A stretch of DNA of 64,000 nucleotides from Felis catus (GCF_018350175.1 NC_058368.1:83454001-83518000), one strand, 5' to 3'; counted from the first letter of the stretch, positions 1 through 6,040 are shown. The notes: generated by a model not told the origin, from the sequence alone. Made by a program: numbers and translations.

Positions 1-187
1 TCAAGTCTGGGATTGTGATGCCTTCTGCTTTGGTTTTCTTTTTGAACATCACTTTGGCTATTCAGGGTCTTTTCTGGTTCCATATAAATTTTAGGATTAT
101 TTGTTTTATCTCTGTGAAGAATGCTCATGTTGTTTTGATAGGGATTGCATTGAATATGTAGATTGCTTTGGGTAGTATCGCCATTTT
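1..187 (-). mobile_element. L1 ORF2 fragment, left part of the inverted 5' segment of a 5'-inverted L1 that is interrupted by the ERV retrocopy
   Basis: Reverse complement encodes ORF2-like ...KAEGITIPDL. The sequence continues seamlessly at 4001 across the TSD. Confidence 0.9.
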
Positions 188-202
188 ATTTTATTTTTTT
201 TT

Positions 203-592
203 CAATAAATTGGGGTTTTACTTCCCACTTCCATTCCCCATCATTGGAGGTAACACAACTCCAGGCTGCGCAATAGAGGGTTTCAAACCCTCCACATGTG
301 TGCCTCATCGCCCCCGTCCTAAATCCTGGACATGCATAAAATCCATTTCTACTTATTGATACCCTCCTTTGCAGTTGCCTCCATTTACCTCCTTCCATTT
401 CTTCTAATGGACTAACTTTTTCTAAATTAAAATATAAATCTGGCCACCAGGTATTTAATGGGGCAGTTCCTAGGGTTTTGTTGTAGATTTCATGAGTCTC
501 TAAGTAATTTCCCATGTCAAATTATAGGGGGTGTGCAGGTTTGGATTTACAGACAGAATTTGCAGAACAATCAAGAGGAGGGCAAGTACCAT
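203..592 (-). pseudogene. env: Truncated gamma-type env (signal peptide plus N-terminal SU/receptor-binding region), frameshifted near codon 30
   Basis: MVLALLLIVLQILSVNPNLHTPYNLTWEIT, then in another frame TWWPDLYF...FYACPG...TCGG...YCAAWSCVTSNDGEWKW (MLV/PERV-like SU motifs). Ends at the poly(A) tail. Confidence 0.85.
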
Positions 593-594
593 AG

Positions 595-2352
595 TTACGG
601 CTCAGTCCGTTGGCGGCGTAGGGTCAATTTTAAAGGATTGTCCTTAGTCCGATCAACAGTCCAGGTTGCCTTTGAAGGTCCAATGAGGTCTGAGAATGGG
701 TCCACTGGTTTGGCGTGGGTGTAATGGATCCAGGAGGTGATTCCGTCTACTTTGATGGCCGTAGGCATTGTCAGGATGACCTGGAAGGGTCCTTTCCACC
801 TGGGTTCCAGAGTCTCCTGCCGATGACATTTGATGGGGACCCAATCCCCCGGTCAGAATTGAGGAATAGGCGGGGGTCCAGTCTCATAAAGTTCTTTTAA
901 CTTGGGCCATACATCTTCATGGACCCTCTGCAAGGCTTGTAGGGAGAACAAGAGTTCAAGACCATTATCATTCTCAGTTTTGACAAGGTCATCTTTTAGG
1001 TAAGGGATGATGGGGGGTGGTTTACCATGCATTATTTCATAGGGTGTGAGTCTCAGTTTGTATGGGGAGTTACGCACCCTGAACAGAGTGTAGGGGAGAA
1101 GGACTGCTCAATTAGTACCAGTCTCCATGGTCAATTTGGTTAGGGTCTCTTTTAATGTTCTATTCATTCTCTCTACCTGTCCTGAGCTTTGGGGTCGGAA
1201 TGCACAATGTAATTTCCAATCAGCCCCAAGTATGGAAGCCAGTCCCTGACTTACCTTAGAGACGAATGCAGGTCCATTGTCTGACCCTATCATTACTGGA
1301 AAACCATACCTGGGCAGGATTTCTTCTAGGATCTTTTTGGCTACAATCTGTGCCGTTTCATTCTTGGTTGGAAAGGCTTCAGTCCATCCTGAAAAGGTAT
1401 CTACAAAAACTAGCAAATACTTATATCCATATTTTCCTGGTTTTACCTCAGTGAAATCTACTTCCCAATAGGTCCCCGGTCTGCTCCCTCTTTGTCTTAC
1501 CCCTGTTGTCTGAGGATTGCTACTTGCATTGTTGAGTTGGCACACTGTACATTTAGTGACTACTTGATCGACCTTATCAGAGACATTTCTGATTTTTAGT
1601 CCAGTCTGTCTCAGTAAGTCCAACATTCGCCGGGAACCTAAGTGGGTGCTGCGATGGATCCGCTCTAGAACTTGCCATCCTAGTTTATCTGGGAGTATAA
1701 TGCTGCTTTTGGAGTCTCTCCACCAGCCATCTTTGATCCGGGTCATAGGAAGTTTACGCATCCATTGAATGTCGCTTTCTGAATACTCAGGGCTGGGGGG
1801 CAATTCCCGGGGTCCGGGGTCTGGCAGCTGTAGGGTCAGCAATTGTGCTGGGGGCCAAGCTATGTTTTTTTTTTTTTTTTTTTTTTTTTGCAGTCTGATC
1901 GGCCAAATTGTTGCCCCGGGAAACTGGGTTGGTTGTCTTCTGGTGTCCTGGGCAATGCACAATCGCTAGCTTTTTGGGTTCCCATAAGGCTGCTAGCAGG
2001 GCTAGAATCTCTTCCTTATTTTTGATGTCTTTCCCTTCAGCTGTGAGGAGCCCCCGTTCTCTGTATATCACCCCATATACATGAGCGGTGGCAAAGGCAT
2101 ATCGGCTATCAGTGTACACGGTTAGCTTTCGGTCTCTTCCTAATTTTAGGGCCTGGGTTAAGGCTATTAGTTCAGCCTCGTGGGCCGAGGTTGGGGGGGG
2201 GGGGTTGGGCTTCTGCCCAAACCACCTTGGTTTCTGAAGTTACGGCCGCCCCCGCATACCTTTGTCCCTGGTGAAGGAAGCTGCTTCCATCGGTGAACCA
2301 GATGGCATCCGCATCCGATAATGGTTGGTCCTGCAAGTCCTCCAGGACCCCT
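595..2352 (-). pseudogene. pol: pol 3' part: RNase H plus integrase, disrupted
   Basis: [27 protein letters not shown] and HCPGHQK (RNase H). HHCC zinc finger, WEVDFTE/SDNGPAF/ERMNRTLKE (DDE) and EPRWKGPF (IN C-terminus). Stop at 1108-1110; frameshifts near 855, at T25 (1865-1889) and at G12 (2193-2204). Confidence 0.93.
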
Positions 2353-2499
2353 TTGCCCTGTCCGGCGGCTCCTGCCAAGGCCCAGTCGCGCGCGGGGCTG
2401 CGCCCCGGGGATGCGTGCCGCAGCAGCTGCCCGCGGGACGCCACGTTGTCACCCGCTGCTGCGCGAGCTGCGGCCCCGCCCCCGCTCCCCGCTGGCGAT
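2353..2499. other. GC/CpG-rich segment of non-viral appearance replacing the RT domain
   Basis: About 147 bp with about 22 CpG (hand count) and a GC box ccccgcccc, lying between protease end QIHFQPG and RNase H start (GV)LEDLQDQPL. No RT motif is present. Confidence 0.75.
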
Positions 2500-2814
2500 C
2501 CCCCGGTTGGAAATGAATTTGGGCCCCCATTTTGGTAAGCAAATCCCTCCCCAACAGGGGGCAGGGGCTGTCGGGAATGACCAGGAAGGAGCGGGTTACC
2601 TTCCCAGTTCTTAGGTCCACAGTCCTCTGAGTTGTCCAGGGGTACATCTTTATTCCAGTGGCCCCTTGTACCCAGGATGATTTTTCAGATACTTTTCTAT
2701 GGGGCTTGACCAGAACTGAGTGATGTGCCCGGTATCAAGTAGGAACTGGACCGGGGTCCCCTACACTTGCAATGTTACCCTAGGTTCGGGGAGGGGATCC
2801 GAACCCCGTCCTCC
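2500..2814 (-). pseudogene. pro: Gammaretroviral protease, disrupted
   Basis: [28 protein letters not shown], then a frameshift, then [26 protein letters not shown]. Confidence 0.9.
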
Positions 2815-2817
2815 CTA
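2790..2817 (-). promoter_or_regulatory. gag-pol UAG readthrough signal (start of the pseudoknot)
   Basis: UAG GGAGGACG GGGUUCGG AUCCCCUCC CCGAACCU resembles the MLV UAG, 8-nt spacer and stem arrangement. Confidence 0.75.
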
Positions 2818-3771
2818 TTCTGTATCTTGGGTAAACAGTATGGGGGCTATTTTAGGCTGCCATTGTCCTTGGCCTTGTTTCTTCTTGGGGCATTCTCGTA
2901 TCCAATGGCCTTTTTCTTTACAATAGGCACATTGATCTTTATCTAAGTGCTGCCTGGGAGGGCGTGTTGTTTGAGTGCCTTCTGGGGGTGGCTGTTCTTT
3001 CTGGACTATAGCAGCCAGGACTTTAGTCATTTTCTCTGTGGCCTTGATCTGTCTCTCTTCTGGGGCGTCCCTGTTGTTGTAGACCCATTGCGCTATATGG
3101 AGCAGATCCTGGATCTGTTTACCTTCTAAATCCTCTAGACTTTGGAGTTTTATTTTAATGTCAGGAGCTGCTTGGTTTACAAAGGACATAACAACAGCAG
3201 CCTGGTTCTCAGGGACTTCTGGATTCATGGGGGTAAACTGTCTAAAGGCTTCCATTAATCTAAGTAAGCAGCTGGACTCTGCCTTTCCCTGTACGACCGA
3301 ATATACCTTAGCCAAATTGGTGGGCTTGTGAGCTGCAGCCCGGAGACCCACCATCAGAGTCTGGTGATAAATGAGTAGCCTTCCCCTACCTTCTGCAATG
3401 TTGTAGTCCCATTCGTCCTGTGGAGGTCTGGTTAGGGGGAAAGTCGCATTAATGAGGCCAGGGTTAGATGTCGGCTGACCGTCGTCTCCGGGAACCAGCT
3501 TTCTTGCTTCTAATTGGATCCTCTCTCGCTCCTCTGTAGTGAACAGGATGCGGAGGAGCTGCTGACAGTCGTCCCAGGTGGGCTTAGGGGTTATAGGGAA
3601 GCAAAAAGTTCCTTCGGTTGGCCATCCAATGCTGAAGGTTGGCCATTCAGAGCGGCAGAGGGTTATTAATTTTCCCCTCCGGATGTCTAGACTCAAATTC
3701 TGTCCTCTGGTTCTAACATCCCTGAAGTTAGCAATGAGGAGAGAAAGGGGAGTGCTTTGAGATTGGCCCAT
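2815..3771 (-). CDS. gag: Open 318-aa internally deleted Gag (63 aa of MA fused to CA lacking its N-terminus, plus NC)
   Basis: MGQSQSTPLSL myristoylation start; WPTF.IGWP.EGTF (MA); PTWDDCQQLL..LFT.EER (CA); CAYCKEKGHWIREC (CCHC zinc knuckle). No stop until the UAG at 2815. Expression is unknown. Confidence 0.8.
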   Translation of the reverse strand: MGQSQSTPLSLLIANFRDVRTRGQNLSLDIRRGKLITLCRSEWPTFSIGWPTEGTFCFPITPKPTWDDCQQLLRILFTTEERERIQLEARKLVPGDDGQPTSNPGLINATFPLTRPPQDEWDYNIAEGRGRLLIYHQTLMVGLRAAAHKPTNLAKVYSVVQGKAESSCLLRLMEAFRQFTPMNPEVPENQAAVVMSFVNQAAPDIKIKLQSLEDLEGKQIQDLLHIAQWVYNNRDAPEERQIKATEKMTKVLAAIVQKEQPPPEGTQTTRPPRQHLDKDQCAYCKEKGHWIRECPKKKQGQGQWQPKIAPILFTQDTE

Positions 3772-3830
3772 CTGTATCCGATCGGTCTCAGGGACGACCT
3801 GTTGACTTGGGGTCTGGTGGGCTTGGGGGG

Positions 3831-3848
3831 ATCCCGGACAAGTGCCCA
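3831..3848 (-). promoter_or_regulatory. Primer binding site, tRNA-Pro type
   Basis: TGGGCACTTGTCCGGGAT matches the tRNA-Pro PBS TGGGGGCTCGTCCGGGAT at 15/18 and follows U5 ...CA-TT. Confidence 0.8.
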
Positions 3849-3850
3849 AA

Positions 3851-3985
3851 TGATATGCCCCAATTCGAGAGACCCCCCGAAAACAAACTGCCAGAGTCCA
3901 GAGTCAAAGCCAAGCGGCAAGGGTCGTTTATTGCAGGTTCGAACCCAGTCCTCAGCGCACTCATTGCCGGTGACGCTAAGAGGCC
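3851..3985 (-). promoter_or_regulatory. R-U5 portion of the 5' LTR (no U3)
   Basis: 135 nt containing AATAAA (3927-3932) and ending ...GGGGCATATCA before the PBS. Directly abuts the TSD. Confidence 0.8.
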
Positions 3986-4000
3986 TAGTATCGACATTTT

Positions 4001-4612
4001 AACAATATTTGTTCTTCCTACCCAGGAGCATGAAATCTTTTCCCTTTTTTTGTGTCTTCTTCAATTTCTGTCATAAGCTTTCTATAGTTTTCAGCATATA
4101 GATTTTTCACCTCTTTGGTTAGATTTATTCCTAGGTATTTTATGGTTTTTGGTGCAACTGTAAATGGGATTGATTCCTTGATTTCTCTTTCTGTTGCTTC
4201 ATTGTTGGTGTATAGGATTGCAACCGATTTCTGTGCGTTGATTTTATATCCTGCAACTTTGCTGAATTCATGAATCAATTCTAGCAGTTTTTTGGTGGAA
4301 TCATTTGGGTTTTCCATATAGAGTATCATGTCATCTGAGAAGAGTGAAAGTTTGACCTCCTCATGGCTGATTTGGATGCCTTTTACTTCTTCCTATTGTC
4401 TGATTGCAGAGGGTAAGACTTCCAATACTATGTTGAATAACAGTGGTGAGAGTGGACATCCCTGTCTTGTTTCTGACCTTAGGGGGAAAGCTCTCAGTTT
4501 TTCCCCATTGAGGATGATATTAGCATTGGGTTGTTCATATGTGGCTTTTATGATCTCAAAGTATGCTCCTTCTATCCCTACTTTTTTGAGGGTTTTTATC
4601 AATAAAGGATGC
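4001..4612 (-). mobile_element. L1 ORF2 (RT region), inverted 5' segment
   Basis: ORFs ..[16 protein letters not shown].. and [18 protein letters not shown].. Confidence 0.92.
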
Positions 4613-6040
4613 TGTGTTCATCAAGACATTATGGTACTGGCACAAGAACAGACACTCAGATCAATGGAACAGAATAGAGAACCCAGAAATGGACCCACAA
4701 ATGTATGGGCAACTAATCTTTGACAAAGCAGGAAAGAATATCTAATGGAATAAAGACAGTCTCTTCTGAAAGTGGTGCTGGGAAAACTGGACACCAGCAT
4801 GCGGAAGAATGAACCTGGACCACTTTCTTACACCATACACAAAAATAAACTCAAAATGGATGAAAGACCTCAATGTAAGACAGGAAGCCATCAAAATCCT
4901 CAAGGAGAAGCAGGCAAAAACCTCTTTGATCTTGGCCGCAGCACCTTCTTACTCAACACGTCTCTGGAGGCAAGGGAAACAAAAGCAAAAATGAACTACT
5001 GGGATCTCATCAAAATAAAAGGCTTATGTGCAGTGAAGGAAACAATCAGCAAAACTAAAAGGCAACCAACAGAATGGGAGAAGATATTTGCAAACGACAT
5101 ATTAGATAAAAGGGTTAGTATCCAAAATCTATAAAAAACTTATCAAACTCAACACCCAAAAAACAAATAATCCAGTGAAGAAATGGGCAAAAGACATGAA
5201 GAAACACTTCTACAAAGACATCCAGATGGCCAACTGACACATGAAAAAATGCTCAACGTCACTCATCATCAGGGAAATACAAATCAAAACCATAATGAGA
5301 TACCACCTCACACCTGTCAGAATGGCTAACATTAACAACTCAGGCAACAACAGATGTTGGCATGGATGCGGAGAAAGAGAATCTCTTTTACATTGTTGGT
5401 GGGAACACAAGCTGGTGCAGCCACTCTGGAAAACAGTATGGAGGTTCCTCAAAAACTACAAATAGAACTACTCTACGACCCAGCAATTGCACTAGTTAAT
5501 ATTTATCTAAGGGATACAGGTGTGCTATTTTGAAGGGACACATTCAGCCCCAGGTTTATAGCAGCACTATCAACAATAGCCAAAGTATGGAAAGAGCCCA
5601 AATGTCCATCGAAGGATGAATGGATAAAGATGTGATATATATATATATATATATATATTCCTCGGCAATCAAAAAGAATGAAATCTTGCCATTTGCAACT
5701 ACCAGGATGGAACTGGAGGGCATTATGCGAAGTGAAATTAGTCACAGAAAGATAAATATCATATGAATTCACTCATATGAGGACTTTAAGAGACAAAACA
5801 GATGAACGTAAGAAAAGGGAAACAAAAATAATTTAAAAACAGGGAGAGGGACAAAACAAAGAGACTCATAAATATGGAGAACAAACTGAGGGTTATGGGA
5901 GGGTTGTGGAAGGGGGAATGGGCTAAATGGGTAAGGGGCACTAACGAATCTACTCCTGAAATCATTGTTGCACTATATGCTAACTAATTTGGATGTCAGT
6001 TAAAAAAAATAAAGAAATACAAGTTAGAATAAAAAAAAGA
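4613..6040 (+). mobile_element. L1 3' segment (ORF2 C-terminus, 3' UTR, A tail)
   Basis: [17 protein letters not shown] and [18 protein letters not shown] motifs; A-rich tail at about 6001-6040. Confidence 0.92.

Follow-up and report, generated by a model that had tools for sequence, protein, structure and literature searches.

A stretch of 64,000 nucleotides from the domestic cat, Felis catus (GCF_018350175.1 NC_058368.1:83454001-83518000; hereafter the window), carries at its start a gammaretrovirus-like endogenous retrovirus (ERV) copy that is devoid of long terminal repeats (LTRs). The copy occupies positions 188–3985 on the minus strand, or 173–4000 with the duplications that flank it, and it sits within the remnant of an older LINE-1 (L1). 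Read along the minus strand, the ERV piece of about 3.8 kb and its surroundings follow the order L1 remnant, TT, a 15-mer, R-U5, the primer-binding site (PBS), leader, gag, protease, a filler, RNase H and integrase (IN), the surface unit (SU) of env, an A-rich tail, the 15-mer again, and L1. This structure and its boundaries are read directly from the window. Positions within the element (el) are counted along the minus strand, el 1 being window position 3985. The segment 188–3985 is very probably a processed retrocopy of an ERV mRNA that was made by LINE-1 target-primed reverse transcription.

Many copies of the same ERV family are present in the assembly that was searched (G000; 2.43 Gb, 71 contigs), and eight regions were compared with the window copy. 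L033, L036, L037, L038, and L039 are proviruses of 8–9 kb, while L040 and L035 have large internal deletions. L034 (C18) is a deleted provirus in which both LTRs are kept. It has an env deletion of its own; of the two introns described below, it keeps the one in the leader and part of the one in gag.

Insertion Site in an Older L1

The upstream part of the host L1 is an ORF2 remnant from the reverse transcriptase (RT) region (4001–4617, minus strand). It has a Pfam RVT_1 match on the open reading frame (ORF) 4018–4392 and is 94–96% identical to 39 other L1 copies. This comparison used the 400 bases upstream of the insert and 40 rows including the window, taken from 40 scored of 4181 candidates. 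The downstream part (1–172, minus strand) is collinear with all six of the L1 paralogs whose continuations were examined, these being the six best matches. The host L1 is thus continuous by homology.

A 15-bp target-site duplication (TSD) flanks the element. Its 3′ copy (173–187) reads AAAATGGCGATACTA on the minus strand, or tagtatcgCcatttt on the plus strand of the window. The 5′ copy (3986–4000) reads AAAATGTCGATACTA on the minus strand with TT before it, or tagtatcgAcatttt on the plus strand, and differs from the 3′ copy by one base. The two 15-mers therefore match at 14 of 15 positions; they abut the first base of R on one side and the A tail on the other. Their length is within the range of roughly 7–20 bp that duplications at L1-mediated retrocopies show. 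A match of at least 14/15 at one fixed offset has a probability of 4.3e-8. On the minus strand the target site is ...ATTGTT/AAAATGTCGATACTA, that is TT/AAAATG..., and TT/AAAA is the motif of the L1 endonuclease.

The 15-mer is single in all six L1 paralogs, which read ...ATTGTTAAAATGTC[G/A]A[T/C]ACTACCCAAAGCAATC... at this place. Each of them runs from ...AAAATGTC[G/A]A[T/C]ACTA directly into CCCAAAGCAATCTACATATTCAATGCAATCCC..., the sequence found from window 172 downward. Because the 15-mer occurs once in the paralogs and continues straight into the downstream flank, the repeat in the window is a true target-site duplication. The target-site sequence of the window recurs in four of the six paralogs, and the other two have CTT or GGT before AAAATG. 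These L1 copies directly show a paralogous empty site, and the pre-insertion site within one older L1 ORF2 was TT/AAAA. A plus-strand segment of the C-terminal part of L1 ORF2 (window ~4590–5800) adjoins the minus-strand host L1 at 4001–4617. The two opposite-strand segments may represent one inverted L1 of the twin-priming type or two separate L1 insertions.

5′ End of the Copy

The copy starts with an R-U5 of 135 nt (3851–3985, minus strand), in which LTR-only matches cover el 1–135. It begins with GGCCTCTTAGCG and ends in CA. U3 sequence beyond 3985 and any 3′ LTR are absent. U3 is contiguous across the U3/R border in all 39 other R-U5 loci (L002–L020 and 20 more), and the window copy alone of the 40 is without it. 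The 40 loci are the ones scored out of 336 first-look candidates, so at least this many exist.

In all 13 LTRs compared (seven 5′ LTRs and six 3′ LTRs), TATAAAA begins 30 nt upstream of the base aligned to 3985, and the LTRs of the relatives read ...TATAAAAGAAGCTGTAAGATCC...GG just before that base. About 30 nt is the usual spacing between a TATA box and the start of transcription. Judged from this spacing, the first base of the copy probably corresponds to the transcription start of its parent.

The PBS (3831–3848, minus strand) has 18 nt, reads TGGGCACTTGTCCGGGAT, and is separated from R-U5 by two T. The PBS of six of seven relatives is within one base of TGGGGGCTCGTCCGGGAT, and that of the seventh differs at two. 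It is presumably a tRNA-Pro site.

An earlier reading of the window by a model, made from the sequence alone, had already described the TSD, its TT/AAAA context, the R-U5 start at 3985, the PBS, and the lack of U3 and a 3′ LTR, and each of these is found where that reading had placed it. Its expectation that 3985 marks the U3/R boundary is borne out by the TATA spacing in the 13 LTRs. It had also stated that L1 ORF2 reads through across the insertion. The continuity holds by homology in the six paralogs, but the ORF is not intact, as an in-frame TGA follows.

3′ End of the Copy

The copy ends inside env. In all seven relatives that retain the region, env reads ...GGGAAGTAAAACCCCAATTTATTGAAA/TGTCCTATGTCC..., whereas the copy has TTGAAA, then AAAAAATAAAAT, and then the TSD. 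The seven env-retaining proviruses go on with TGTCCTATG after ...TTGAAA. The A-rich stretch at 188–202 reads AAAAAAAAATAAAAT on the minus strand. As the relatives read ...TTGAAA/TGTCC, only GAAA of this stretch is templated, and the AAA at 200–202 belongs to it. The remaining 12 nt (188–199, minus strand; AAAAAATAAAAT) form a non-templated A-rich tail of 10 A interrupted by two T, the remnant of a poly(A). The junction between env and the tail is single in the genome at up to two mismatches.

An AGTAAA hexamer (217–222, minus strand), present in the seven relatives, ends 17 nt before the last templated base and is a candidate cryptic polyadenylation signal. In the relatives a T/G-rich sequence lies just downstream of the break point in env. 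AGUAAA is a used but weak variant of the polyadenylation signal. The arrangement suggests that the parental RNA was prematurely cleaved and polyadenylated in the SU region of env at this weak signal.

It is also conceivable that L1 made the copy but that its 3′ end is not a viral polyadenylation site, and that the end derives instead from an A-rich mutation or insertion in the env of the source, from internal priming, or from a template switch. A tail of just 12 nt and a non-canonical hexamer would fit such an origin. The search of the assembly did not find the source provirus, whose env could differ at this site, and A-run expansions do occur in this family (A25 in the window copy, an A-rich gag in L034, and a CAAA repeat in L040). 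We nevertheless judge this origin unlikely, as all seven relatives have just GAAA at the site, the hexamer at its usual distance and the downstream T/G-rich stretch suit a cleavage site, and the tails of old retrocopies commonly shrink.

Two Missing Introns

Two segments that the relatives possess are absent from the copy, and the precise deletion of each is seen directly in the alignments. At the first junction (3778/3779, minus strand; el 207/208), the copy lacks a leader intron of 345–406 nt, whose donor is in the leader and whose acceptor lies 7 nt upstream of the gag ATG. Seven of the eight relatives aligned here read ATCG/GT(A/G)AGT...CCTCCACCT(C/A)CAG/GATACA. Their intron begins with GT(A/G)AGTGA and ends in ...CCTTTCCTCCACCT(C/A)CAG, after which comes GATACA(G/A)ATGGG. 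In the eighth, L038, a substitution beside the acceptor AG blocked exact mapping, though the AG itself is visible. The donor lies about 50 nt 3′ of the PBS, which is also where the major splice donor of gammaretroviruses such as murine leukemia virus is located.

At the second junction (3582/3583, minus strand; el 403/404), a gag intron of 635–658 nt is missing. Six of the eight relatives read CTAAG/GTGAA(G/A)...CACCCACCAG/CCCAC. The two exceptions are L034, which lost the acceptor by a deletion of its own, and L036, which is unaligned at the donor but shows GGGTGAAA. With this intron, gag loses p12 together with the C-terminal part of MA and the N-terminus of CA, and its frame stays open.

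Both gaps match GT...AG to the base and lie in extended consensus sequence (GTAAGT, AAG/GTGAAG, and pyrimidine tracts 5′ of the AG). With three placements allowed at each, GT-AG alone would arise by chance at a rate of about 3/256 per junction. The two junction strings are each single in the assembly at up to three mismatches, and no LTR-bearing copy has either. By these boundaries, which random deletion would not predict, both gaps are exact GT...AG introns, as splicing would leave them.

That the gaps are DNA deletions, arisen in the source provirus or after insertion, is very improbable. There are a few bases of microhomology at the first junction, where the placement of G/GG is ambiguous, and unrelated internal deletions are frequent among the relatives. 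Such deletions would have had to fall twice on GT...AG with extended consensus, and neither of them occurs in any LTR-bearing copy.

RT Deletion and Ribosomal Spacer Filler

A third internal loss affects pol. At 2352–2498 (minus strand), a GC-rich filler of 147 nt takes the place of about 1.55 kb. The replaced segment corresponds to L033 4004–5554, where the pol frame of that provirus encodes RVT_1 and the RT connection domain. No Pfam match to an RT domain was found within the element, and one was found in L033. The LTR-bearing L034 carries the same filler (~4091–4241 of L034, reverse strand) with identical junctions, and short G-rich microhomologies are present at both. Since the filler and its junctions are common to this LTR-bearing locus, the lesion was inherited from an already defective provirus lineage and is unconnected with L1.

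The filler is 84–87% identical to a GC-rich repeat on C37 (G000:C37:13096675-13096840). Rfam matches identify this repeat as ribosomal DNA (rDNA), with 18S and 5.8S upstream and the start of 28S downstream. The part that matches the filler is therefore within internal transcribed spacer 2 (ITS2). The filler is antisense to the rRNA and is circularly permuted with respect to ITS2. Its donor was either rDNA itself or a second ERV family that includes L043, and the alignment does not separate the two. A literature search for the capture of rDNA or its spacers by proviruses found nothing relevant.

The second family is also gammaretrovirus-like and has at least four copies (L043–L046) that are ~96–98% alike over 3.1 kb. 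They lie at G000 C17:17815422-17818551, C2:66807250-66810379, C2:28838802-28841931, and C1:45456942-45460071. Its members carry ~339 nt of rearranged ITS2 in sense orientation within gag, where it replaces part of p12/CA, and one of the ITS2 blocks is 99.5% identical to rDNA. The presence of pre-rRNA spacer sequence in two ERV lineages is curious. The rDNA cluster itself (G000:C37 ~12.96–13.10 Mb; L047–L052) has at least four units, one of them inverted, at spacings of ~28–58 kb, with a pRNA match upstream of 18S. The whole 28S Rfam model matched only 779 bases at one unit on C37 (288 bits), and the 28S of that unit may be truncated or mis-assembled.

Coding Content and Decay

Pfam domains occur in the order Gag_MA, Gag_p30, zf-CCHC, RVP, RNase_H, Integrase_H2C2, rve, MLVIN_C, and TLV_coat, which is the gammaretroviral order. 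The matches to Gag_MA, Gag_p30, RVP, RNase_H, rve, MLVIN_C, and TLV_coat exceed the curated cut-offs. By its domain content and order, the copy classifies as a gammaretrovirus-like (class I) ERV.

An open gag remnant of 318 codons (2815–3771, minus strand) fuses the N-terminus of MA to CA-NC and matches Gag_MA, Gag_p30, and zf-CCHC. Its frame is kept by compensating -2 and -4 deletions in AG repeats (window 3262–3281), which scramble about six CA residues; a further -9 deletion is present in NC (window ~2875). The -2 deletion is common to L038 and the -4 deletion to L039, which suggests recurrent slippage. Co-option of this frame was considered and rejected, as it is open only by way of the compensating -2/-4 deletions, with the -9 in NC, and every other gene is broken. 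The open gag is therefore not read as a sign of selection, and no present function is indicated.

The protease region (2499–2814, minus strand) contains in-frame stops and has an RVP match on ORF 2240–2734. The 3′ part of pol (595–2351, minus strand) encodes RNase H and integrase and is interrupted several times by stops and frame changes. Its RNase_H, rve, Integrase_H2C2, and MLVIN_C matches fall on ORFs 1787–2239, 1108–1965, and 595–852, and it is 92–95% identical to the proviruses. Within it, a short A run has expanded to A25 (1865–1889, minus strand; T25 on the plus strand); nine of ten relatives have A6 here, the exception being L034 with A4. A CAAA microsatellite occupies this site in L040, and in L034 an A run in gag is expanded.

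The pol stop is at 597–595 and the env ATG at 592–590. The env fragment (200–592, minus strand; ~390 nt) comprises a signal-peptide-like start and an N-terminal piece of SU, is broken by a stop or frame change, and ends at 200, with a TLV_coat match on ORF 186–521 (E 3.3e-6). The truncated-Env antiviral factors of cats and other species, so far as the part of the source at hand describes them, are composed of a signal peptide together with N-terminal SU, the same portion of Env as here (PMC9245640). The env frame of the window copy is broken after about 30 codons, so that an antiviral role of this kind is not suggested.

Relatives, Age, and Uniqueness

Over a 2-kb alignment of RNase H, IN, and env, the copy differs from 10 relatives by 3.9–5.9%, or by 2.2–4.5% without CpG sites. 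In this alignment it is sister to L033 with a support of 0.998 and has a terminal branch of 0.023. Under an assumed neutral rate of about 1–2.2e-9 per site per year, the branch would roughly translate into an age of the order of 10–20 million years. The LTR pair of L033 is 93.7% identical. L035 (G000:C47:112327500-112335499) spans ~4 kb from its 5′ LTR to its 3′ LTR, with one large deletion from gag to integrase, and keeps the flanks of both introns.

The sequence-only reading had proposed a search for LTR-bearing parental proviruses and for further copies without LTRs. The first yielded the LTR-bearing relatives in the same assembly but not the exact source. The second yielded no further copy, as the splice junctions and the env/tail junction matched only the window. 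A search for an R-then-poly(A) pattern likewise gave no match; this negative carries little weight, as the 16-mer of the pattern is found without mismatch in no more than 28 of the 39 LTR loci. The window copy is apparently a one-off, with no burst like that of HERV-W.

Proposed Origin

We infer as follows which enzyme acted, that AGTAAA was used, and in what order the events took place. Transcription would have begun in the 5′ LTR of a provirus of the RT-less lineage with the ITS2 filler, ~30 nt past the TATA box. Two splices would have followed, the first joining the leader donor to the acceptor that lies 7 nt ahead of the gag AUG and the second taking out the intron within gag, and the RNA would have been cleaved and polyadenylated early in the SU part of env, 17 nt past AGUAAA. 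ORF2p of L1, acting in trans, would have nicked the TT/AAAA site of the older L1 ORF2 remnant, with the poly(A) serving for priming. Reverse transcription would have reached the 5′ end of the RNA, and a second nick 15 bp away would have yielded the 15-bp duplication. Decay would have followed, with stops in protease, RNase H, IN, and env, expansion of A6 to A25, and a shortened and mutated tail.

Retroposition of ERV RNA by the L1 machinery had been proposed from the sequence alone, and the 15-bp TSD, TT/AAAA, the loss of introns, the A tail, and a 5′ end at the transcription start now support it. The A-rich tail that it had drawn at 188–202 narrows to 188–199, the part absent from the relatives, and nothing in env beyond GAAA accounts for that tail as a template. 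The idea of a full-length fossil from cap to poly(A) stands for the 5′ end, which lies at the putative transcription start; the copy is otherwise doubly spliced and ends in the 5′ part of SU rather than in the viral 3′ R. The template was an RNA spliced twice and polyadenylated early, not a full-length genomic one, and relative to full proviruses the copy has three internal losses (the two introns and the RT deletion with its filler). The broader point that RNA-processing events of the parent are preserved is upheld by the two exact GT-AG introns and by a 3′ end 17 nt after AGTAAA.

Several observations weigh against a LINE-1 retrocopy of such an mRNA. The tail is short, its 12 nt including 10 A, and AGTAAA counts as a weak variant of the signal. 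A search of the assembly did not turn up the exact source provirus. The sister L033 has a complete pol, while L034, which shares the RT deletion, stands elsewhere in the RNase H-IN tree. Given that L034 shares the filler without being sister to the copy here, the copy must derive either from a recombinant or from a locus that the assembly lacks. Finally, a single such copy was found, so recurrence cannot be judged.

The copy could alternatively be an integrase-made provirus that later lost its 5′ U3 and everything from env on, with the two 15-mers matching by coincidence. Internal deletions are indeed common in the family (~4 kb between the LTRs of L035, and large deletions in L034 and L040), but here their ends would need to hit the transcription start and the A-rich tail exactly. 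Gammaretroviral integration gives 4-bp duplications and LTR ends of the form TG...CA. In place of the two LTRs and 4–6 bp duplication of an integrase-made provirus, the copy has no U3, no 3′ LTR, and a 15-bp duplication. The flanks form one L1 sequence with an exact 15-bp duplication at TT/AAAA, the paralogous empty site already contradicts such an origin, and U3 is retained in every one of the 39 other R-U5 loci. Decay of a provirus is accordingly an extremely remote explanation. An assembly chimera that joins an ERV contig into L1 is scarcely credible either, even in so repeat-rich a region, as a mis-join would leave no direct 15-bp repeat at an L1 endonuclease motif together with an A tail at one end and a transcription start at the other.

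If the copy is an L1-made retrocopy, it might further be the fossil of a regular viral mRNA rather than of an aberrant transcript, such that the virus routinely used its major splice donor to make a leader-spliced gag mRNA without the packaging region and polyadenylated it within env. The acceptor for this splice, 7 nt upstream of the gag AUG, is retained together with its pyrimidine tract in seven of the eight relatives aligned at the boundary. An RNA of this kind would be unpackaged and hence open to L1, which would explain why it, rather than genomic RNA, was retroposed. We offer this as a tentative and rather doubtful extension. A literature search for a splice acceptor upstream of gag found nothing relevant.

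Comparison With Known Systems

L034 and the window copy share the RT deletion, the filler, and its junctions and are otherwise 92–95% identical. They differ in that L034 has LTRs and owes its spread to the retroviral route. Processed pseudogenes of cellular genes, or retrocopies, were reportedly attributed to L1 acting in trans by Esnault et al. in 2000. The window copy shares their hallmarks, namely a 5′ end at the transcription start, loss of introns, poly(A), and a TSD at the L1 endonuclease motif. The template differs, as viral RNA has a normal route of reverse transcription and integration of its own.

The window copy offers a clean non-primate example of retroviral RNA mobilized by LINE-1. 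The frozen RNA would record the transcription start, two splice events, and the cleavage site of an extinct virus, and it supplies concrete sites for RNA-seq and minigenes. It would also indicate continued transcription of a defective lineage that lacked RT and carried rDNA. Annotation should neither score such pieces as degraded proviruses nor use them for LTR-based dating. This is a single dead copy, and the general picture is unchanged. Among the papers listed by a literature search, none appears by title or abstract to describe such a processed ERV copy in cats, which is not proof that none is in print.

The closest known systems are retroviral themselves. In the available part of the report on them, HERV-W processed pseudogenes are defined by a 5′ end in R-U5, a 3′ end in U3-R, poly(A), and TT/AAAA with a TSD of 5–15 bp (PMC5016936). 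The R-U5 5′ end without U3, the poly(A), TT/AAAA with a TSD, and collinearity with RNA are common to them and the window copy (PMC5016936). The 3′ end of HERV-W copies lies in U3-R, at the polyadenylation site of the virus (PMC5016936), whereas the window copy ends inside env. They are described as collinear with proviral mRNA, the word "spliced" occurring zero times in the portion of the text at hand, whereas the window copy lacks two introns (PMC5016936). By the same partial source, pseudogenes account for 135 of 213 HERV-W elements (PMC5016936), against one copy found in the window family. The hosts of HERV-W are primates and that of the window copy is not, and the ERV family is set apart from HERV-W by context only. 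HERV-W has been called the one HERV group that L1 has specifically mobilized, at least in the accessible part of the source (PMC5537654).

A second parallel is ARTenvV of Hippotraginae, which is presented, in the section of the source that was available, as a copy without introns that goes back to a spliced, ERV-derived mRNA; it has a TSD of 14 bp, TTAAAA, and a short run of A, and L1 is named as its maker (PMC9604959). Surveys cited in that section found retrocopies of genes, ERVs included, in various mammals (PMC9604959). On what that section gives of ARTenvV (PMC9604959), it and the window copy are alike in lacking introns, in stemming from the spliced mRNA of an ERV or its derivative, in having a TSD and an A run, and in being of the L1 type. 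They differ in that ARTenvV, as characterized there, is the mRNA of a co-opted env that a host-gene context drives (PMC9604959), whereas the window copy derives from an LTR-initiated transcript of a decaying ERV, one that spans gag, pol, and the 5′ part of env, and has no sign of co-option. The kind of element is thus already known, and what the window copy adds is an unusual form of transcript, one that is spliced and ends in env.

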